Shown here: in pieces, positions 3,932-46,183 of the stretch
Position numbering within the stretch: the stretch's first letter is position 1
How the letters are laid out: each line of letters begins with the position of its first letter
Assembly: GCA_018208355.1 (NCBI GenBank)
Contig: CP062796.1
Coordinates: 1,918,517-1,982,516, forward strand
Reading direction: 5' to 3'
Source of the DNA: Candidatus Fermentithermobacillus carboniphilus
GTDB lineage: Bacteria > Bacillota > Sulfobacillia > Fermentithermobacillales > Fermentithermobacillaceae
Length of the DNA stretch: 64,000 nt
Made by a program: the position numbers and the translations under genes
Notes under the pieces: generated by a model
Told to the model about the DNA's origin: nothing
Databases searched by the model: none
Seen by the model: the letters and a program-made list of their open reading frames with translations, nothing else

Positions 3932-4710
3932 AGTCTTCTCCTTGACTGTTGTACCACCGTGAGGATGAAAGTTATTCCATAGCTCAGGGCCATTAGAATA
4001 AAACTCAAAGCGATAGCCACGTCGAAGTTGCCCTTGCTTATTTCCATGACAATCGCTGTAGTGAGGACTCTGGTGTAGTGCCGGACGTTTCCGCCCACAG
4101 CCATAGATGCCCCCACTTCGGAGATGACGCTGCCGAGGCCAGCCATGACTGCCGCAAGGAGCCCGAACCTACATTCCTTTATAATGAGCCACCAGAACTG
4201 GACGGGGGATGCCCCGAGTGCCATTATCTGTAGCCTGAGTTTGGGGTTCAGCTGTTGGACCGAAGCCATGGTGAACCCGGTAACGATGGGAGAAGCTATC
4301 ACGGCCTGGGCGATTACCATCGCAGTCGGTGTATACATGAGACCGAGGCTTCCCAGAGGTCCGTTGCGCCACAACAGGATGCTTACCCACAGGCCCGCCA
4401 CAGTAGGGGGAAGCCCCATCCCGGTGTTGACGGCACCCACTACAACCTTTCTGAAGCGGAACTGCGCCACGGCCAAATATAGCCCCAGGGGTATGCCTAT
4501 AGCCAGGCTTATCAAGGTAGCAAGACCGGAAACCCTGAGGGTCAGGAAGGTGATCTCAAGTATCTCAGGGTCTCGTGCCACTATGAGCCGTATTGCCTTG
4601 ATGAGGCCAGTATAAACTAAGTCCACAAGACCACCCCTGTACGAAAGCGTAGCAGCGTTACAGGTGTTTACCCGGGTTGGAAGGCCGCGGGCATACGGAC
4701 AGACGTACAA
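3928..4710 (-). CDS. tupB: Tungstate ABC transporter permease (TupB-like)
   Basis: Multi-TM BPD-transporter-like permease, located between the ATPase and the TupA-type binding protein. Confidence 0.7.
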   Translation of the reverse strand: MYVCPYARGLPTRVNTCNAATLSYRGGLVDLVYTGLIKAIRLIVARDPEILEITFLTLRVSGLATLISLAIGIPLGLYLAVAQFRFRKVVVGAVNTGMGLPPTVAGLWVSILLWRNGPLGSLGLMYTPTAMVIAQAVIASPIVTGFTMASVQQLNPKLRLQIMALGASPVQFWWLIIKECRFGLLAAVMAGLGSVISEVGASMAVGGNVRHYTRVLTTAIVMEISKGNFDVAIALSFILMALSYGITFILTVVQQSRRRL

Positions 4711-4781
4711 ACCGCCGCGGCGGTTCGCACATGCGGCTACTGGCTAAAGAACCCAGTGGGGATATGCGAACCGCCGAATGT

Positions 4782-5645
4782 CTAGAACTCGGGCTTCCCG
4801 GCATCTGGCACGAAAAGCGGCTCACCGAATTTGTCCACACCGAACTCGCCTATTATTTTCTGAGTCTCCGGTGAGACCATGAAGTCCACGAAAGCCTTGG
4901 CCCCTTTGGTGTTAACCTTTGGGAATTTCTCGGGATTCACCTGCATCACGTGGTAAATATTCAAGAGCGACTTGTCAGGGGAATGCTTACCTGTCCGGTC
5001 GCTCTGCACGAGAATCACGAGATTCAGGTTCTTCTTGAGGGCAAGGTACGTAGCTCTATCGGTCAACACGTAGCCACCCTTCTCCGATGCTATGTTGAGG
5101 GTTTGGCCCATGCCGGTCCCTGATTCCTGATACCAGGGTCCTCCAGGAGTAATCCCTGCCTCTTTCCAAATTTCCAATTCCTTCTTGTGAGTGCCAGAAT
5201 CATCCCCCCGGGAGATGAAAAGAGCTCCTGCTTTGGCTATCTTCTCGAAAGCCAAGGGTGCGCTACTTATTCCCCTGATGCCCGCTGGATCTTTTTCGGG
5301 TCCGCATATGATGAAGTCATTGTGCATGACAAGCTGGCGGTTTACGGCGGCCCCGCTCTTGACAACCTTTAATTCGGCTTCTGGTGCGTGGACCAGGAGG
5401 ACGTCGGCCTCACCCCGTTCTCCCATGGCAAGGGCTTGCCCTGTCCCTACCGCCACGGTCTTTACTCTGTATCCCGTCTTTTTCTCGAATAGCGGTATCA
5501 GCACATCCAAAAGGCCCGAATCTTGAGTGCTCGTTGTCGTAGCCAGTATGACATCTTTCTTGGTCGTGCAGCCTGCCAGAAAGATTACAGCGGTCAGCAC
5601 AAGCAATGCCACCGGCGCCATCGATTCCCGCAATTTCCGCGTCAT
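4782..5645 (-). CDS. tupA: Tungstate-binding lipoprotein TupA (substrate-binding protein)
   Basis: Lipoprotein signal peptide with lipobox LAGC. TupA-type TTSTxDSGLLD motif, then a type-II periplasmic-binding fold. Confidence 0.75.
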   Translation of the reverse strand: MTRKLRESMAPVALLVLTAVIFLAGCTTKKDVILATTTSTQDSGLLDVLIPLFEKKTGYRVKTVAVGTGQALAMGERGEADVLLVHAPEAELKVVKSGAAVNRQLVMHNDFIICGPEKDPAGIRGISSAPLAFEKIAKAGALFISRGDDSGTHKKELEIWKEAGITPGGPWYQESGTGMGQTLNIASEKGGYVLTDRATYLALKKNLNLVILVQSDRTGKHSPDKSLLNIYHVMQVNPEKFPKVNTKGAKAFVDFMVSPETQKIIGEFGVDKFGEPLFVPDAGKPEF

Positions 5646-39681: not shown

Positions 39682-41889
39682 ATGAGAAGCCTTTCCAAGA
39701 TTCTGGCATGCCTCGTGCTCGGCGGGCTGTTGCTGGCATTATTTCCATCTGCAGCCTACGCCAGGCTCAATGCTTACGAGTGGAAGCTGATGCAGACACT
39801 CCAGGAGGCTGAGGCTTCAGGAGACACAGCCACTATGGTGAAGGTCCTCCTAGAACTCATAGATATCGAGGAACGCTACGACGACCTCGACTCCCACCAG
39901 CGCCTCGCGCCCTATTACCAGAAGCTCGGACGCTACTATGACAGCATAGGCGAATTTCAGAAGGCCCGGGAGTGCTTTCTGAAAGCGGGTTTTCACTGGC
40001 GGGCGATGAACGCTCCGGAGTCCGCGCTGGCGGATGATGCCAGGGCGAGGCAGTTGAATATCGAACTTGAACTCTTCCGTGAAGTTCCGGCCCAGGATTT
40101 GCCCGGCTATCCTCTTGCTCTCCACGAACCTGCGTGGGGAACGTACCTTGGAGGTCATTTTCCTCTGGACGGGAACGTGGGGATCAAGTATAGCAGAGTT
40201 CCCCTATATTACGGGAAGCCCCATGCCATCCTGGAATACGTCGAGTGGGGAAATCCCGTGCCCAACAATACCCTTGGACAGGTGAGGCAACTGGGAGTTC
40301 CACTGGAACTGGCCTTACAGCCCGCGTCAGGCCTTGAAAACGTGAAAGAAGACTCTTACATACGGAACCTTTTGACTCAGCTCAATTCCCTGGGGGTGCC
40401 GGTTTTCCTCCGATTCGGGGGAGAAATGAACGGTGGCTGGGTGATCTGGGGCAAGAACCCCTCGGTCTTCATAGAAAAATTCAGGCTGGTTGCGGACCTC
40501 GCCCACAAAATTGCTCCCAATGTGGCGATGGTCTTTTGCCCCAACCACGTGCCTGAGGATTACGAGAAGTATTACCCGGGTGACGAATATGTTGACTGGA
40601 TCGGGGTCAACTTCTACAGCGACTACTACATGGCAGGCGATCCTCACCTGCCTGAAACCACTCAGGCCATTTTCCAGGCCGGGAAGAAAGCCAACCCGGT
40701 AGATAAGCTCATCAAAATCTATGAGATGTTCTCTGATAGAAAACCCATAATGATAGGAGAGTTTGGGGTAAGTCATTACTCTGTCAGCACGAAAGAGGAC
40801 TGCCTGGATTGGGGGCTGAACCAGCTTTCGCAGGTGTACGGGTACCTACCCTTGAAGTTTCCCAGGATCAAGGCGGTGTTTTACTTCAGCGCGGACCAGG
40901 GGAGTCCCGACTATAAACCTTCCAACCGGTGGTCAAACTACTCCCTCGGGAGGGAACAGTTCAGATCCAGGTACCTTGAGGTCACGAAAAGCCCGTATTA
41001 CCTGTCGGGGAAGGATAGGGTTTCGCCTGTAAGGTATGCAAGCCTCCAGGAGGCGGGTCTTATCCCCGGGGAGAACAAAATCCTGGCTTACGTGCGGCTT
41101 CCGTATCCTTTTGCCGGAAAAGTTCGGTACGAGTTTGACGGGAAGATTGTAGGGGAAGCAGACTATGCTCCTTTTGCCATCTCGTTGAATATCCCGGAAA
41201 ACCTGGAGGGGATTCACCTTCTCACGGTGAGGACGTGGTATGCCGGAGGCAAAGAAGGGCCTGCCAAAACCTACGCCATAGACGGGGAAACGTTGCGGGT
41301 CCATCCTCTGTCAGGCGACCAGGTTCCGGTTGCCGCGTTTTCTGATCTCGAAGGGCACTGGGCCTTCCGGGAAATCGAAAAACTGACGGGTCTCGGAATC
41401 TTGAAAGGATACGGGGATGGGAGTTTCAGACCTGACGGCCCGATCACCAGAGCAGAATTCTTAAAGGTTCTCTTTGAGGTGGCGGGTATAACCGCGAAAA
41501 CCCCTGAAACAGAACCGGTGTCCCCCTATGAGACTTCACATTGGGCGGCGGCTCTCATCGATGCAGCAAGAGAGCGAAAGGTTATCCGGGATTCTCGCGG
41601 ACTTGACATCGCCGGCACGTTCCTCCCCGACGAGCCTTGTCCCCGGTGGGAAATGGCCGTTTATGCTGCCAGGGCCATTGGACTCCGGCCGAAGGACGTG
41701 GCCCGGACGAGTTTTTCCGACGATTCCGAGATACCGGAGGAGTGGAAGGGGACAATTCAGGCGGCAGTCGATGCGGGACTCATCCGGGGTCTTGACGGTA
41801 GAAGGTTTGGCCCGCGAGAGAGCATGACCCGGGCTCAGGCCTGCGTGATGGCCGTCCGGATCATGAGATACCTCAGCTCGGTCAAATGA
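39682..41889 (+). CDS. Secreted SLH-domain protein with a GH26-like (beta-mannanase-type) catalytic domain. Signal peptide, N-terminal helical/TPR-like region, three C-terminal SLH repeats.
   Basis: Signal peptide MRSLSKILACLVLGGLLLALFPSAAYA. GH26-type block (VFLRFGGEMNGGWVIWG...IMIGEFGV). Three SLH repeats (FSDLEGHWAFREIEKLTGLGILKGYGDGSFRPDGPITRAEF; HWAAALIDAA...; FSDDSEIPEEWKGTIQAAVDAGLIRGLDGRRFGPRESMTRAQA). Confidence 0.65.
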   Translation: MRSLSKILACLVLGGLLLALFPSAAYARLNAYEWKLMQTLQEAEASGDTATMVKVLLELIDIEERYDDLDSHQRLAPYYQKLGRYYDSIGEFQKARECFLKAGFHWRAMNAPESALADDARARQLNIELELFREVPAQDLPGYPLALHEPAWGTYLGGHFPLDGNVGIKYSRVPLYYGKPHAILEYVEWGNPVPNNTLGQVRQLGVPLELALQPASGLENVKEDSYIRNLLTQLNSLGVPVFLRFGGEMNGGWVIWGKNPSVFIEKFRLVADLAHKIAPNVAMVFCPNHVPEDYEKYYPGDEYVDWIGVNFYSDYYMAGDPHLPETTQAIFQAGKKANPVDKLIKIYEMFSDRKPIMIGEFGVSHYSVSTKEDCLDWGLNQLSQVYGYLPLKFPRIKAVFYFSADQGSPDYKPSNRWSNYSLGREQFRSRYLEVTKSPYYLSGKDRVSPVRYASLQEAGLIPGENKILAYVRLPYPFAGKVRYEFDGKIVGEADYAPFAISLNIPENLEGIHLLTVRTWYAGGKEGPAKTYAIDGETLRVHPLSGDQVPVAAFSDLEGHWAFREIEKLTGLGILKGYGDGSFRPDGPITRAEFLKVLFEVAGITAKTPETEPVSPYETSHWAAALIDAARERKVIRDSRGLDIAGTFLPDEPCPRWEMAVYAARAIGLRPKDVARTSFSDDSEIPEEWKGTIQAAVDAGLIRGLDGRRFGPRESMTRAQACVMAVRIMRYLSSVK

Positions 41890-42266
41890 CTGTTTTTCTC
41901 AAGACAAGTCATTCTTCTACAGGGGTGCGGCAACTTCTGTGTCAAAAAGATAGCCAGGAACAGCTCAGAGGATATTGACTGGGTTTACTCCATGGGATTA
42001 TCATCTATGTGTAATCTGCATATATATGATGAACATGAGTTTCGGCGTCAATGTTGAGGCAAGGCTTGGTAAAATACCGAAAATGACCTGAGAGATTCAA
42101 CAGAGACTAAGGCCAAACGCCGGCGGCCGACGTAACCGCAGGCTACCGGCCCAGGCAGGTGATAGCAGTGCATCACGGAAAGAATGGGGAGGATTTCTCG
42201 TGCTGCCAGAATGGCCATGGAGGAGGCCACAGGCCGCAGGTTTCCTGCGTTTGCGTGAGTTCCCGC

Positions 42267-42608
42267 ATGGAGCGCTTCATGGAACCCTGTCTTTTGCTTC
42301 TCTTGCTGGAAAAACCGTCGCACGGATATGACCTTATCTCTCGACTCGTGGAATTTGGGTTCGGGGAGAACCAGGACCCCGGTATGGTCTACCGGAACCT
42401 GCGGAGGCTCGAGGAACAGGGCATGATCAGTTCCAGGTGGGATACTGCGGGTGCAGGGCCGGCCAGACGTTTCTACGAAGTTACGGGGGAGGGAACCGAC
42501 TACCTGGCAGCCTGGGCTCAGACAATACGTCAGCACGTTAAGACCTTGGAAAAATTCCTCGAATGGTATGAGGCTCTTCGCAAGGGAGAAAGACCTTCTT
42601 CCACCTAG
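42267..42608 (+). CDS. PadR-family transcriptional regulator
   Basis: Winged-HTH PadR motifs (LLLLLEKPSHGYDLISRL...GMVYRNLRRLEEQGMISSRWDT...RRFYEVTGEG). Start at the internal ATG (MERFMEP). The longer track ORF starts in the promoter region. Confidence 0.8.
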   Translation: MERFMEPCLLLLLLEKPSHGYDLISRLVEFGFGENQDPGMVYRNLRRLEEQGMISSRWDTAGAGPARRFYEVTGEGTDYLAAWAQTIRQHVKTLEKFLEWYEALRKGERPSST

Positions 42609-42736
42609 CGGGGGGCTGGCGGGGCGGACTTGTCATAAGTCTTCTCTCTACTCGTGGGCTTTCGGACTTTGCTCTCTCAGGTTCGCCTTTCAAGGGCGAT
42701 TCGCCGGAGTTATACGGGGAGAGGAGGTGATAATCG

Positions 42737-43225
42737 ATGCGTTGCTGTGAAGGATACAGAGATGGACCTCGCGAAGGATGGCACGCGCACCACGGCTGCT
42801 GTGAAGGTGGTCGCGGCTTCCATGGAAATAGATGCTGCGAACCGGCACACAAAGGGTACTGGTGGGAGTGCTGCTGTGAGCGCCGCGACGAGAGTTGGTG
42901 CTGCCGGCCGGTTTACCACATCCATTGCCACGGATGTTGTTGCTGCTACCCTTATGCAGGAGGACCACACGGGCATCCCTGGAAGTGGCAAGAGCACCGC
43001 CACGCAGAAGCCTGCGAGTGCTGGCACGACGGGGACGCAGACAAAGAAAAGTTCGATTCAGAGGCACAAGTCAGGCTTCTGAAGAAGGCGGTAAAACACC
43101 TCAAAGGCAAGGTCGAGTGGCTGGAGGAAAAGGTTAACCGGCTCTCTTCGGAAACCACCGGGGTTTCAGAAGAACGCCAGGAGAAATCTGACTGTTGCGA
43201 CTGCGAAGACGGACAAGAACAATAA
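42737..43225 (+). CDS. Cys/His/Trp-rich protein with repeated CC doublets (~21 Cys and ~14 His in 162 aa) and a C-terminal coiled-coil. Function unknown; candidate metal- or redox-binding protein co-transcribed with PadR.
   Basis: A strong GGAGGTGA ribosome-binding site sits 6 nt before the ATG. The sequence is MRCCEGYRDGPREGWHAHHGCCEGGRGFHGNRCCEPAHKGYWWECCCERRDESWCCRPVYHIHCHGCCCCYPYAGGPHGHPWKWQEHRHAEACECWHDGD, then the coiled-coil AQVRLLKKAVKHLKGKVEWLEEKVNRL, then the C-terminal SDCCDCEDGQEQ. The DNA carries a recurring GCTGCTGTGA(A/G) unit. Confidence 0.55.
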   Translation: MRCCEGYRDGPREGWHAHHGCCEGGRGFHGNRCCEPAHKGYWWECCCERRDESWCCRPVYHIHCHGCCCCYPYAGGPHGHPWKWQEHRHAEACECWHDGDADKEKFDSEAQVRLLKKAVKHLKGKVEWLEEKVNRLSSETTGVSEERQEKSDCCDCEDGQEQ

Positions 43226-43465
43226 CGGTTCCGCATGGGTCCTGTGAAGTGACATAAGACGGGCCGGAGGTAGATTCTCCTTTCTCGTGCCGGCGAAGTA
43301 GTTTGTGAGCGGCAGGAAAGGAGCTCTCCGGCCTTTTCCTTCTGTCCCCATACGATTTTCCGAATCCTGGTGACGTGCCCCTAAATGCCCTGACGTCTGC
43401 AGGAACGACGCTTGTCCCGCGAGAATCATAACTGTCAACTACTTTCAGATCTGAGGTGAAGAAAT

Positions 43466-44698
43466 ATGGTGTTAGCGGTCAAAAACGCGACCCTCTTCGA
43501 CGGGTCAGGCGCCCCTCCTTACGGTCCTACCACCGTTATTGTCGAAGGTGACAGGATCGCTTCCGTGGGGCCGTCAGCAGAGGTTCAGATCCCCGAAAAC
43601 TGTGAGATCCTGGACGCAGCCGGGAAGTTCCTGATGCCCGGGCTCATAGACAGCCACGTACATATCACCGGCTCAGGTGATCCAAACCGGTTGAAAGCGT
43701 TGAAGGAACTGGTCCCCCACCAGGCGATAAGGGCGGCTCTCAATGCCAGGGCGACGCTTGAGGCGGGCTTTACCGCCATAAGGGACGCAGGAGCGGGCTT
43801 TCTGGTAGACGTAGCCCTGAAACAGGCAATTAACGAAGGGCTTGTTCCGGGACCCAGGATGCAGGTAGCTTGCCGGGGATTGTCGATCACCGGAGGGCAC
43901 GGCGATACCAGGAATGGCTGGCCGCCCGAGGTGGAGTTCAAAGGAAGATATGTGGTAGACAGCCCCGACGAAGCCCGCAGGGCAGCGCGTGAGCAGCTCA
44001 GAGATGGGGCTGACCACATAAAACTTCACGCCACAGGCGGCGTAATGTCTGAGGGCGACGTCCCAACGGCTAGAGGATTGACCATCGACGAGATGAGGGC
44101 CGCAATTGAAGAGGCCCACAACGTCGGTAAGAAAGCCATGGCCCACGCCCAGGGTTCTACCGGCATAAAAAACGCGATCCTGGCCGGCGTCTCTTCGATC
44201 GAGCACGGATTCTATCTCACAGATGAAATCATTGAACTGATGTTGAAGAAAGATGTGTTCCTGGTCCCGACCCTTGCCGCGGTCCATCACATAGTCGAAA
44301 AGGGAACAGAGGCGGGAATCCCCGAGTACGGCGTGAGGAAAGCCAAAGAGGCTCAGAAAGCCCATCTCGAAAGCTTCGCCAAGGCATATAAGGCGGGCGT
44401 GAAAATCGCCATGGGCACCGATGCGGCCACGCCGTTCAACTACCACGGAAAGAACGCTCTTGAGCTCGAACTCATGGTGAAAGCCGGGATGAAACCCATG
44501 GACGCTCTTCTCGCGGCGACCAAGATGGGAGCAGAGCTTATGGGTTGGGGCGACAGGATGGGCCAGGTGAAGCCGGGTTATTGGGCGGACCTGATCCTGG
44601 TCGATGGGAACCCGCTTGAAGACATACGTGTCCTCCAGGATGTTTCAAGAATCAAAGTTGTCATGAAGGCAGGCAAGATAGAGGTCCGAAGGCAGTAG
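43466..44698 (+). CDS. Metal-dependent amidohydrolase (COG1228, prolidase/imidazolonepropionase-like family)
   Basis: LIDSHVHITG metal ligands, KLHATGGV and a C-terminal amidohydrolase block (GTDAATPF...ADLILVDGNPLEDI). Confidence 0.8.
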   Translation: MVLAVKNATLFDGSGAPPYGPTTVIVEGDRIASVGPSAEVQIPENCEILDAAGKFLMPGLIDSHVHITGSGDPNRLKALKELVPHQAIRAALNARATLEAGFTAIRDAGAGFLVDVALKQAINEGLVPGPRMQVACRGLSITGGHGDTRNGWPPEVEFKGRYVVDSPDEARRAAREQLRDGADHIKLHATGGVMSEGDVPTARGLTIDEMRAAIEEAHNVGKKAMAHAQGSTGIKNAILAGVSSIEHGFYLTDEIIELMLKKDVFLVPTLAAVHHIVEKGTEAGIPEYGVRKAKEAQKAHLESFAKAYKAGVKIAMGTDAATPFNYHGKNALELELMVKAGMKPMDALLAATKMGAELMGWGDRMGQVKPGYWADLILVDGNPLEDIRVLQDVSRIKVVMKAGKIEVRRQ

Positions 44699-44772: not shown

Positions 44773-45150
44773 CTATGCGGAAGCACCTTCCCGCCGGGAA
44801 GCAGTATCTCCTTGCATGTAGTCCAAAAGATTCATCGCATCTTGTAGGATTTTCTGGATGTCGGCCAGGACAACGAGGACCCTTTCCTCCGCTTCTATGA
44901 ATCGTTTTACGGGGCCATGCATGTTGACGATTTCCTGTATGCGTCCGAGAGCGGCTTTTTGCTTTTCGTCGAGCTCTTTGCCGGTGAGAATAGCCGATTG
45001 GGCGGCCAACTGGTGGGTCCTGTATTCCCTGAGGATCGATAACGCCTGCGGGTTTTCTAAAATAGCCTGTTTAGCCTTCTGATACTCTTTGTATTCCTCG
45101 CTTCCTTTAAGCTCACGGGCAAGCTCGTAGGCCTTATCGTACACAGCCAT
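44773..45150 (-). CDS. YlbF/YmcA-family regulatory protein (DUF964)
   Basis: 125-aa helical protein (YDKAYELARELKGSEEYKEYQKAKQAILENP) typical of the YlbF/YheA family of Firmicutes. Confidence 0.65.
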   Translation of the reverse strand: MAVYDKAYELARELKGSEEYKEYQKAKQAILENPQALSILREYRTHQLAAQSAILTGKELDEKQKAALGRIQEIVNMHGPVKRFIEAEERVLVVLADIQKILQDAMNLLDYMQGDTASRREGASA

Positions 45151-45193: not shown

Positions 45194-46183
45194 CTAACGA
45201 TAGATGGTGAACGCCGGAGAAGGCAAGAGAATCGTCGCTAGAATCCCCACCAAGAATGCGGAGAGGACGAGTAATCCTAGAATTGACAGCACCGCGCCCT
45301 TATTGCGAGACTCTTTGAGAAGCACCAGAACGCCTATGCCGGCGTTGGAAGTAAGCGCGCTCAAGGTGGCGGGGAACGACATCATGCCGGACAAGAAGGC
45401 TTCCGCCACTGCCACCGACGTGGCGCAGGAAGGGATCAGGCCTATTAGTGCGGCGACGAGAGGTTGCCAGAATCCCAGTCCGGTCAAGCCACGTATGAGG
45501 TTTTCACCCAGCATGTGCCCGGCAAAGTTCAAAAGACACGAAAGCACGAAAACCATGGCAAGAGTCCTTGCCGTCCTGTTTAAAGCATGGCTCGCCATAT
45601 CGAGGAAAGTCGCTTTTCCGCCGATGCAGGAGTCCACCTCACGGCCCGCCTTATTTGAATGCCTCCGGGCTCTCCCCGAACCGCACATGCAGAAATCCCC
45701 GGATTCCGCGGGCCTCTCGAAATCGGCAGGAAGACCTTCCGTAGTGTCAGTATCAGGCAAGCGTCCCAACCGAGCCGTGGCCAGGTTGACGGAGATGCCG
45801 ACGACCGCACCCCAGACGAATTTCGTTACGATAAGAGGCACAACGAAAGGCAAAGAGGACCGGTTGGCGAGGAGGATGGGTAGGGCTTCGTCGGAAGTGG
45901 AGATATAGGCGGCCAGCAGGGAACCGGCGGGTATCAGCCCTGCCAAGTACAACATGGTAGCTGCCACCGAGAAACCGCACTGGGGAAGCAATCCCAATAT
46001 CGAGGCGAAAATAGGGCCCAGTATGGGCTGTCCGGTGGCCCTTGCCAGCCAAGACTCTCTTGTTCTGTGTGATACGGCTTCTACCAGAAGAAAAACGGCG
46101 AAAAGTAGAGGGAGCATAGCCCCTGTATGTTCAAGTCCTTCTAACAGTACCTCGCGTAGGTGCTCAAGCACTCGTTCGTCCAA
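45194..46183 (-). CDS. Polytopic membrane permease with duplicated Cys-containing TM motifs (ArsP_2/DUF2899-like putative metal(loid) exporter)
   Basis: Two homologous halves with LLPQCGFSVAATMLY and LIPSCATSVAVAEAF in transmembrane helices, plus a Cys-rich cytoplasmic loop (CMCGSGRARRHSNKAGREVDSC). Confidence 0.35.
   Translation of the reverse strand: MDERVLEHLREVLLEGLEHTGAMLPLLFAVFLLVEAVSHRTRESWLARATGQPILGPIFASILGLLPQCGFSVAATMLYLAGLIPAGSLLAAYISTSDEALPILLANRSSLPFVVPLIVTKFVWGAVVGISVNLATARLGRLPDTDTTEGLPADFERPAESGDFCMCGSGRARRHSNKAGREVDSCIGGKATFLDMASHALNRTARTLAMVFVLSCLLNFAGHMLGENLIRGLTGLGFWQPLVAALIGLIPSCATSVAVAEAFLSGMMSFPATLSALTSNAGIGVLVLLKESRNKGAVLSILGLLVLSAFLVGILATILLPSPAFTIYR

Follow-up and report, generated by a model that had tools for sequence, protein, structure and literature searches.

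We analysed a window of 64,000 nucleotides from Candidatus Fermentithermobacillus carboniphilus (contig CP062796.1, positions 1,918,517 to 1,982,516; the window is this whole stretch) and describe here two adjacent genes on its forward strand. The first, padR, encodes a regulator of the PadR family, and the open reading frame (ORF) directly behind it encodes a 162-amino-acid protein that is extremely rich in Cys, His and Trp. Judged by gene order, motifs and the shared operator, the two genes appear to be the Cys-rich variant of a recurrent, uncharacterised PadR-DUF5320-type pair. We tentatively propose that the pair forms an autoregulated operon responding to a metal or metalloid, with the Cys-rich protein as the binding partner.

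The 162-amino-acid ORF is a real gene. An earlier annotation made from the letters of the DNA without database searches (the sequence-only reading) gave it about 21 Cys, about 14 His and several Trp; exact counting returned 21, 14 and eight. The first 100 residues hold 18 of the Cys, 13 of the His and seven of the Trp, and the whole protein has five Tyr. The Cys residues are laid out as five CC doublets, one CCC, one CCCC, the single C64, a CxC at 93/95 and the CCDC at 153-156. At 13% Cys the ORF is the maximum among the 364 six-frame ORFs of at least 50 amino acids in the window (mean 2.4%, standard deviation 2.0%), and it contains eight CC doublets, with at most one in any other of these ORFs. 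This Cys composition is well outside chance.

The gene is preceded by the Shine-Dalgarno sequence GGAGGTGA, 6 nt ahead of its ATG, which agrees with the strong ribosome-binding site described before. Its GC content by codon position (0.61/0.49/0.60) has the same pattern as in the window's long genes (about 0.58/0.43/0.64), and this gene-like pattern is missing from the overlapping alternative ORFs at 42737-43225. Several long ORFs overlap in the high-GC DNA here. The codon-usage score of the frame was 0.008 vs -0.015 for the next frame; the margin is slight and we did not rely on it. A tandem or DNA-repeat origin was ruled out, since Tandem Repeats Finder returned no tandem repeats and the sole repeats in the DNA of the gene are a 10-nt unit, GCTGCTGTGA, present three times, and an 11-nt unit, TGCTGTGAAGG, present twice. 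Both units encode the CCE(G) peptide motif. The earlier description of a real, fast-evolving repeat protein encoded by internally repetitive DNA is thus retained for the reality of the gene and, given the lack of homologues and the variable N-regions of its positional orthologues (see below), for its fast evolution; the DNA repeats have to be dropped.

Searches of Pfam and NCBIfam with the 162-amino-acid protein gave weak coiled-coil noise at most, including a far sub-threshold match to DIMCO_N (E 0.11, residues 98-126), and in the PDB a profile search picked up nothing beyond generic coiled coils, e.g. GCN4 and designed ones. We modelled the protein with AlphaFold2 using a 16-sequence family alignment. 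Residues 1-96 had a predicted local distance difference test (pLDDT) score below 50 and no secondary structure. The N-region (residues 1-100) consists of about six units headed by CC(E); it begins with M-R-CCEGY and terminates with CECWH. The model places a helix at residues 108-151, with block-mean pLDDT of 96-98 across residues 111-140, and CCDC follows at 153-156, just as a Lys-rich coiled coil and a terminal CCDC had been predicted. Read from the sequence, the helix carries a leucine zipper of four heptads with V113, V120, V127 and V134 in the a positions and L116, L123, L130 and L137 in the d positions. Neither a hydrophobic segment nor a signal peptide can be read from the sequence and, because no hydrophobic segment is present, the protein should be cytoplasmic. 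Two other interpretations of this architecture were set aside: bZIP-like DNA binding, as the basic stretch, just 3-4 residues long, is missing from the window protein, and a precursor of a ribosomally synthesised and post-translationally modified peptide (e.g. SCIFF/ranthipeptide), as no maturase lies beside the gene in the window or at loci of the Cys-rich type.

The upstream gene was assigned to the PadR family before, and this holds. It matched Pfam PF03551 with 63.3 bits (cut-off 27), with E 2.1e-17 for the core and 4.4e-17 for the translation of 42159-42605. In a phmmer search against the PDB it matched 41 PadR-type chains, the best being TM0937 (2esh, 7.7e-16, residues 40-129). The NCBIfam model PhaQ (TIGR02719) gave 91.5 bits, which is under its cut-off of 139.35, and by this measure the window PadR is a relative of PhaQ-type regulators, not a PhaQ equivalog. 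The start formerly placed at ATG 42267 needs correction. The reading frame stays open upstream of this ATG, GTG 42168 is preceded by an AGGTGA Shine-Dalgarno sequence at 5 nt, and the GTG is most likely the true start.

The longer protein carries an N-terminal Cys/His tail. Related PadRs all have a Cys/His-rich N-extension ending in CxC-x3-R-[MV]-ERF-x-EPC, and the tail of the window PadR has the matching end, ...SCCQNGHGGGHRPQVSCVCVSSR-MERFMEPC. CxC or CC motifs are present in the tail as they are in the partner protein. On the one Logan contig where an exact look-up found the identical 162-amino-acid protein, the gene call begins padR at 42279 and misses the tail. Automatic annotation probably cuts this tail off in many genomes.

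Upstream of padR there is a sigma-70-type promoter, and a 19-bp palindrome, TATGTG-N7-CATATA, abuts its -10 box. As read from the sequence, the extended arms of this putative operator span 42000-42011 and 42019-42030, reaching into the -10 box. The palindrome has one perfect match within the window; we found no second operator or other regulon member there, and matches with two mismatches occurred at chance level. The ATGT/ACAT half-sites are spaced by 5-8 nt and not uniformly by the 8 nt of classical PadR boxes. Since a single promoter and operator precede the two genes, no such site lies between them and a weak terminator-like hairpin follows, padR and the Cys-rich gene form a two-gene operon with the operator placed for autorepression, to which we infer that PadR binds. 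This supports the co-transcription formerly deduced from adjacency on the same strand. Coordinates of all features are collected in Table 1.

The untranslated parts of the operon gave no significant sign of an RNA element. The leader between the operator and padR (42025-42167) is longer than in the relatives; it had no Rfam match, and its fold z-score of -1.5 was not significant. A 21-codon ORF (42026-42091) without a Shine-Dalgarno sequence lies within it. In the intergenic spacer (42609-42736) no promoter-like, terminator-like or operator site was found, and as an RNA element it likewise had no Rfam match and a fold z-score of -0.96, which is not significant. In the predicted fold of 42606-42745 (z -0.96, no better than shuffled) a CU-rich stretch at about 42640-42650 pairs with the Shine-Dalgarno region GGAGAGGAGG.

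Direct searches with the Cys-rich protein were uninformative. A word-indexed search found no homologue, and a full phmmer search against 1.84 billion representatives gave 0 matches at E <= 0.001. Relatives were found through the regulator instead. Relatives of the window PadR are encoded at 19 genome loci, and the hosts of the related loci are anaerobes from digesters and sediments, represented by metagenome-assembled genomes (MAGs). The PadRs of L002-L006 and L010, all from Bacillota MAGs, are 70-74% identical to the window PadR. At these loci, as well as at L015 and L016 from Bipolaricaulota, the next gene after padR encodes a protein of 66-108 amino acids whose N-region is Cys/His-rich and whose C-terminal part is an amphipathic helix. 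The window protein and these positional orthologues have in common the M-x-CCEG[HY] N-terminus, GCCC(C), CxC-x-[HR]-G before the helix, the [KR]F-x-S helix cap and the four-heptad zipper. The Bacillota members also share a CC/CxC tail after the zipper (AGCCEKD in P0003, ECECEKG in P0013 and ECQCEDG in L002).

A profile search with the alignment of the positional orthologues brought 15 further proteins (P0001-P0015). No Pfam domain was found in any of them, and just two carry source names, 'DUF5082 domain-containing protein' and 'hypothetical protein'. Each has 6-17 Cys, with Cys runs of up to eight. Three of them, P0009, P0012 and P0004 (about 100 amino acids each), have seven or eight Cys in a row, which is very unusual in bacterial proteins. 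The helix of the 15 proteins is well conserved and reads GF[HR]RRFxSREEKIAxLEAYLADLQAEAxAVQEE. Across the orthologues the Cys number varies from 6 to 21, and the window protein is the longest and the most Cys- and Trp-rich member of the family. When the window protein was compared with the family profile in hhalign, the result was 84.6% with a pairwise E of 6.8e-6 for residues 106-142 only, i.e. for the helix.

Every family member on a long enough contig sits directly behind a PadR gene, and in several cases the stop and start of the two genes overlap (L021 1149/1124, L025 5004/5001). The dN/dS ratios (non-synonymous to synonymous substitution rates) of close family pairs were 0.16-0.73 in this frame, which points to purifying selection on it. 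At L027 (about 4500-4874) the padR beside P0014 looks frameshifted, with the Cys tail and the core in different frames, and may represent an assembly error or a decaying copy. All members come from uncultured organisms. On the evidence of these neighbourhoods the PadR and poly-Cys/His zipper protein pair is a recurrent one in Bacillota and Bipolaricaulota MAGs and not a one-off.

The genes that follow the pair differ between loci. In Bacillota (L004, L006/L010 and L034) a permease split into two proteins of about 160 and 185 amino acids comes next, with a Pfam ArsP_1 match of 3.9e-14 and a weak match to the SO_0444 Cu/Zn efflux model. At L007, L009 and L011-L014 ArsP_1 permeases stand directly after padR without the Cys protein. 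At the Bipolaricaulota loci the pair is followed by a Chromate_transp (ChrA-type) gene. A PNPOx-like flavoprotein is encoded upstream of the pair in L021-L023 and L027, all from Bipolaricaulota, and genes for a ChrA-type transporter and a flavodoxin/FMN_red protein lie downstream, a hint that this lineage uses the pair in dealing with oxyanions or redox chemistry.

The related loci also share the operator. TATRTG-N7-CAYATA, with 0-1 mismatch, was found just upstream of padR in the window and in nearly all related loci, about 25 in number (L001-L011, L013, L017, L018, L021-L026 and L030-L034), essentially once per locus. In related loci a TTGACA-type -35 box and a -10 box lie directly ahead of the palindrome, a layout like that of the window. 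Within this operator clade, L017 and L030-L033 have a canonical DUF5320 (PF17253) gene next or next but one after padR. The PadRs paired with canonical DUF5320 show 48-52% identity to the window PadR, and at their loci there are also genes for NifX-like (Nitro_FeMo-Co) proteins and for CbiA/MinD ATPases that contain Fer4 inserts. In three of these loci the operator occurs again directly before the NifX-like or the DUF5320 gene (L030 3544-3562, L032 3962-3980, L033 1643-1661), and there the partner appears to be a direct target of PadR with its own control site.

The Cys-rich proteins thus occupy the same slot behind a PadR of the same clade with the same operator (window, L002-L006, L010, L015, L016, L021-L027 and L034) as canonical DUF5320 proteins do at L017 and L030-L033. 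Both kinds combine a biased, probably disordered N-region with one helix of about 35 residues at the C-terminus. A hhalign comparison of the Cys-rich family profile with the canonical DUF5320 profile gave 83% over 39 columns, in the helix only, and coiled coils readily give false similarity; the window protein alone gave 17.8%. Against Pfam PF17253 (gathering score 27 bits) the window protein had no match at E <= 1, and two of the 19 Cys-rich family members matched it below threshold, the better being P0003 (22.2 bits, E 3.3e-4). The two kinds differ in several respects. The N-terminal motif MYY-x-TGLPGWMRFG-x-SPGW, conserved in the canonical DUF5320 proteins that we sampled, is absent from the window protein and all its Cys-rich relatives, and the N-region is Cys/His/Trp-rich in the window protein whereas that of canonical DUF5320 is Gly/Pro/Gln-rich. 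The Cys-rich loci have permeases or no accompanying genes, in contrast to the NifX-like and MinD-Fer4 ATPase genes of the canonical loci. We therefore did not file the window protein as a DUF5320 member. It is, in position and architecture, the counterpart of DUF5320 and possibly a very divergent branch of it.

The composition of the PadR tail was compared with that of the partner. PadRs with a canonical DUF5320 partner have a Gly/Arg/Pro-rich N-tail (L017, L018, L032), and those with a Cys/His-rich partner have CC or CxC together with His (window, L002-L006, L015, L016, L021, L025). The PadR tail of L030 is mixed (Cys with Arg/Gly) although its partner is canonical. The tail therefore tends to mirror the N-region of the partner, and this is not a rule but a pattern in a small sample without phylogenetic correction.

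Table 1. Features of the padR operon (positions in the window)
Feature	Positions	Strand	Details
Sigma-70-type promoter	41975-42004	+	-35 TTGACT, 18-nt spacer, -10 TATCAT; 10/12 matches
Putative PadR operator TATGTG-N7-CATATA, 19 bp	42006-42024	.	palindrome abutting the -10 box
5' leader, operator to padR start, about 145 nt	42025-42167	+	10-25 nt in relatives
padR	42168-42608	+	146 amino acids from GTG 42168; tail, short winged-helix core and C-terminal helix
PadR N-terminal Cys/His tail, 33 residues	42168-42266	+	MHHGKNGEDFSCCQNGHGGGHRPQVSCVCVSSR; conserved in relatives
Intergenic spacer, 128 nt	42609-42736	+	holds Shine-Dalgarno GGAGGTGA at 42723-42730
ORF of the Cys-rich protein	42737-43225	+	162 amino acids; most Cys-rich of the window ORFs
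Cys/His/Trp-rich N-region, residues 1-100	42737-43036	+	from composition; AlphaFold2 pLDDT below 50
C-terminal amphipathic helix, residues 108-151	43058-43189	+	from AlphaFold2; Lys/Glu-rich
C-terminal CCDC tail, residues 153-156	43193-43204	+	from composition
Weak terminator-like hairpin GGAGG-TAGAT-TCTCC, then TTTCTCGTGC	43266-43290 (hairpin 43266-43280)	+	5 pairs, modest T-run

Elsewhere in the window, 2 kb past the pair on the downstream side, there is an ArsP_2 permease gene (45194-46183, minus strand) that matches the NCBIfam 'arsenic efflux protein' model at 1e-56, above its cut-off. Next to it is a YlbF/YmcA-family gene (44773-45150, minus strand), so YlbF was correctly placed nearby by the sequence-only reading, which overlooked the ArsP_2 gene, the operator and the Cys/His tail of PadR. 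The flanking genes encode a GH26 glycoside hydrolase with SLH domains (39682-41889) and an amidohydrolase like Xaa-Pro dipeptidase (43466-44698; 382 bits, cut-off 500), both seemingly unrelated to the pair. Searching the window with tblastn, we found no other genes related to padR or the Cys-rich gene, and none related to the split ArsP_1 permeases.

Among the roles suggested earlier for the Cys-rich protein, we rate a metal or metalloid role as the most plausible, and we hold the following mechanism as a tentative proposal, with somewhat less than even confidence; ion binding, the identity of the ion, repression, dimerisation and hand-over are all steps that we infer. PadR would bind the 19-bp palindrome abutting the -10 box and switch off its own promoter. 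Its Cys/His tail (CC...CxC), together with the conserved Cys of EPC in helix 1, may form a sensing site for a thiophilic ion. Candidates include the soft metals Cu(I), Zn, Cd, Ni and Co and the metalloids As(III) and Sb(III). Upon ion binding PadR would leave the DNA, the operon would be derepressed and the product of the second gene would be made. The N-region of this partner, about 100 residues with 18 Cys (mostly vicinal CC) and 13 His, would be unstructured without the ligand. The Val/Leu zipper would dimerise the partner and bring the two N-regions together, with the CxC before the helix and the CCDC after it juxtaposed. The partner could then bind the same ion through vicinal thiols and imidazoles and act as a buffer or a chaperone. 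In the related operons the ion might subsequently be passed on to the downstream ArsP-type or ChrA-type permeases for export, whereas the pair of this genome stands by itself.

This proposal has counterparts among known systems. SmtB/SmtA, CopY/CopZ and ArsR/ArsD are operons under the control of their own small winged-helix repressor, with a Cys-rich protein that binds metals or metalloids among the products. CopY senses through CxC motifs and is loaded by a chaperone, CopZ, which delivers Cu(I). The window pair resembles these systems in combining a small winged-helix repressor and a Cys-rich partner in one putatively autoregulated operon. The regulator here, however, is a PadR and not a member of the ArsR/SmtB or BlaI/CopY families, and the partner is unrelated in sequence and domains to SmtA, CopZ and ArsD, having a disordered region and a zipper instead of a folded domain. 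The vicinal Cys pairs of ArsD (Cys12-13, 112-113 and 119-120) serve in metalloid sensing and chaperoning (PMC4562236). Another likeness is to Hpn, a nickel-binding protein with repeated EEGCC motifs (PMC5312948). Like the window protein, Hpn and Hpn-like of Helicobacter pylori are small, cytoplasmic and dominated by His and Cys. The EEGCC motif can be set beside GCCEG, RCCE and ECCCE in the window protein and CCEGH in its relatives. On the other hand, Hpn consists of about 47% His with His runs, has just four Cys, no coiled coil and no linkage to PadR, and there is no detectable homology between the two.

Several observations weigh against a metal- or metalloid-binding partner. Pfam and NCBIfam searches of the protein gave no match at E <= 1 to metallothionein, ArsD, HMA or metal-binding families, and its eight Trp and five Tyr are unusual for a metallothionein. 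The operon in the window has no transporter, and the ArsP_2 gene close by runs in the opposite direction and lacks the operator. Cys-richness is not a property of the canonical DUF5320 partners that fill the same slot, and the general role of the pair need not use thiolate ligands. BLASTP of the window protein against its nearest family member, P0013, was not significant, and its homology to the family rests on positional orthology, architecture and short motifs, with profile similarity confined to the helix. Finally, the start/stop overlaps in the relatives suggest 1:1 production with the regulator, which would fit an interacting co-regulator better than a bulk sponge.

The last point leads to the main rival explanation, in which the zipper protein is not an end product but the signalling partner of PadR, as a co-sensor or an anti-repressor. 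The zipper helix would dock on the C-terminal helix or the dimer of PadR, the matched Cys/His regions would jointly bind a metal or a cluster, and repression would be set or relieved for a regulon that lies partly elsewhere. In its favour, the pair is constant and its cargo variable (ArsP_1 permeases, ChrA, NifX-like proteins with MinD-Fer4 ATPases, or none), the two genes are translationally coupled in relatives, and the PadR tail tends to mirror the partner. The PadR genes followed by permeases without the partner (L007, L009, L011-L014) imply that the partner is an add-on to the regulator and not to the transporter. Loading of CopY by CopZ offers an analogy. There is also a conceptual precedent for PadR with a small helical partner: in the HAAS-PadR proposal, the gene of a helical partner invariably accompanies that of a standalone winged-helix protein of PadR type, and the partner was proposed to pass a signal to this protein (PMC11237479). 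The window partner is nevertheless not a HAAS protein. HAAS has three helices and a GxP kink and is usually fused to membrane or Toastrack sensors, whereas the window partner is soluble, with a single zipper helix, no GxP motif and its own Cys/His region. The HAAS/DUF1700 Pfam model did not match the window protein and matched one of the 19 family members weakly (E 0.012). A Cys count of 6-21 among orthologues resembles a capacity rather than a defined sensing geometry. The mixed tail of L030 makes the mirroring a tendency. We consider this explanation rather unlikely, although it is the strongest competitor of metal or metalloid binding.

A broader form of the same idea would extend to the whole PadR-DUF5320 group, and we regard it as a little less probable still. 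The dyad might be an unrecognised two-protein sensor widespread in anaerobes, in which the tail of the regulator is a short copy of the low-complexity region of the partner, the partner docks via its zipper and the matched regions jointly capture a signal. In the Cys/His branch, which includes the window pair, the two proteins would hold a thiophilic metal, a metalloid or an Fe-S cluster between them as the signal; the Gly/Arg branch would rely on another ligand or on a condensate-like interaction. The window protein would then be the most expanded member.

The poly-Cys regions could also belong to a redox or thiol-stress module. On this view the targets of oxidants, electrophiles, polysulfides or oxidising oxyanions of the chromate type would be the Cys residues in the PadR tail and in the partner. 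PadR would be released once disulfides or persulfides form, and the partner would serve strict anaerobes as a sacrificial thiol buffer. The anaerobic origin of the hosts and the PNPOx-like flavoprotein, flavodoxin/FMN_red and ChrA genes beside the pair in Bipolaricaulota are in line with this, and vicinal, clustered Cys oxidise easily as a matter of general chemistry. However, thiol chemistry leaves the enrichment of His and Trp unexplained, disulfides between adjacent Cys are strained and rare, and genes for thioredoxin, peroxiredoxin or rhodanese were found in none of the loci inspected. We find this explanation doubtful and give it a small chance.

Smaller yet is the chance that the Cys region handles Fe-S clusters or a metallocofactor intermediate and that the pair works with NifX-like and MinD-ferredoxin ATPase genes. 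Such genes are indeed encoded at the canonical DUF5320 loci, which have the same PadR clade and operator, yet they occur at none of the loci of the Cys-rich type. The DIMCO_N match mentioned above could be read in this direction, but it is far sub-threshold and falls inside the coiled coil, and runs of adjacent Cys are not the typical spacing of cluster ligands.

Least credible is that the ORF encodes a structural protein of the spore coat or exosporium or is spurious and unexpressed: the genome is one of Bacillota with sporulation-type genes reported nearby (YlbF among them) and high-GC DNA yields overlapping long ORFs here, but a spore-structural role, raised by the sequence-only reading, is unlikely because most relatives found are from Bipolaricaulota, always behind the regulator and often with export permeases next, and a spurious ORF is at odds with the strong Shine-Dalgarno sequence, the gene-like codon-position GC and the architecture conserved in orthologues under purifying selection.

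In the literature we searched, the coverage of which was incomplete, we found no PadR-family sensor of metals or metalloids and no description of a module of PadR with a Cys-rich protein, so its earlier designation as undescribed stands; DUF5320 was mentioned in passing only, with its function nowhere described. If the Cys/His tail of PadR senses an ion, PadR would join the families that have evolved thiolate sensing sites. DUF5320 is found in many anaerobe metagenomes, and its Cys-rich variant suggests a concrete, testable chemistry together with a defined 19-bp operator. For bioinorganic chemistry, proteins that join runs of up to eight Cys to a zipper predicted to dimerise are of interest, and they may possibly serve in metal capture.

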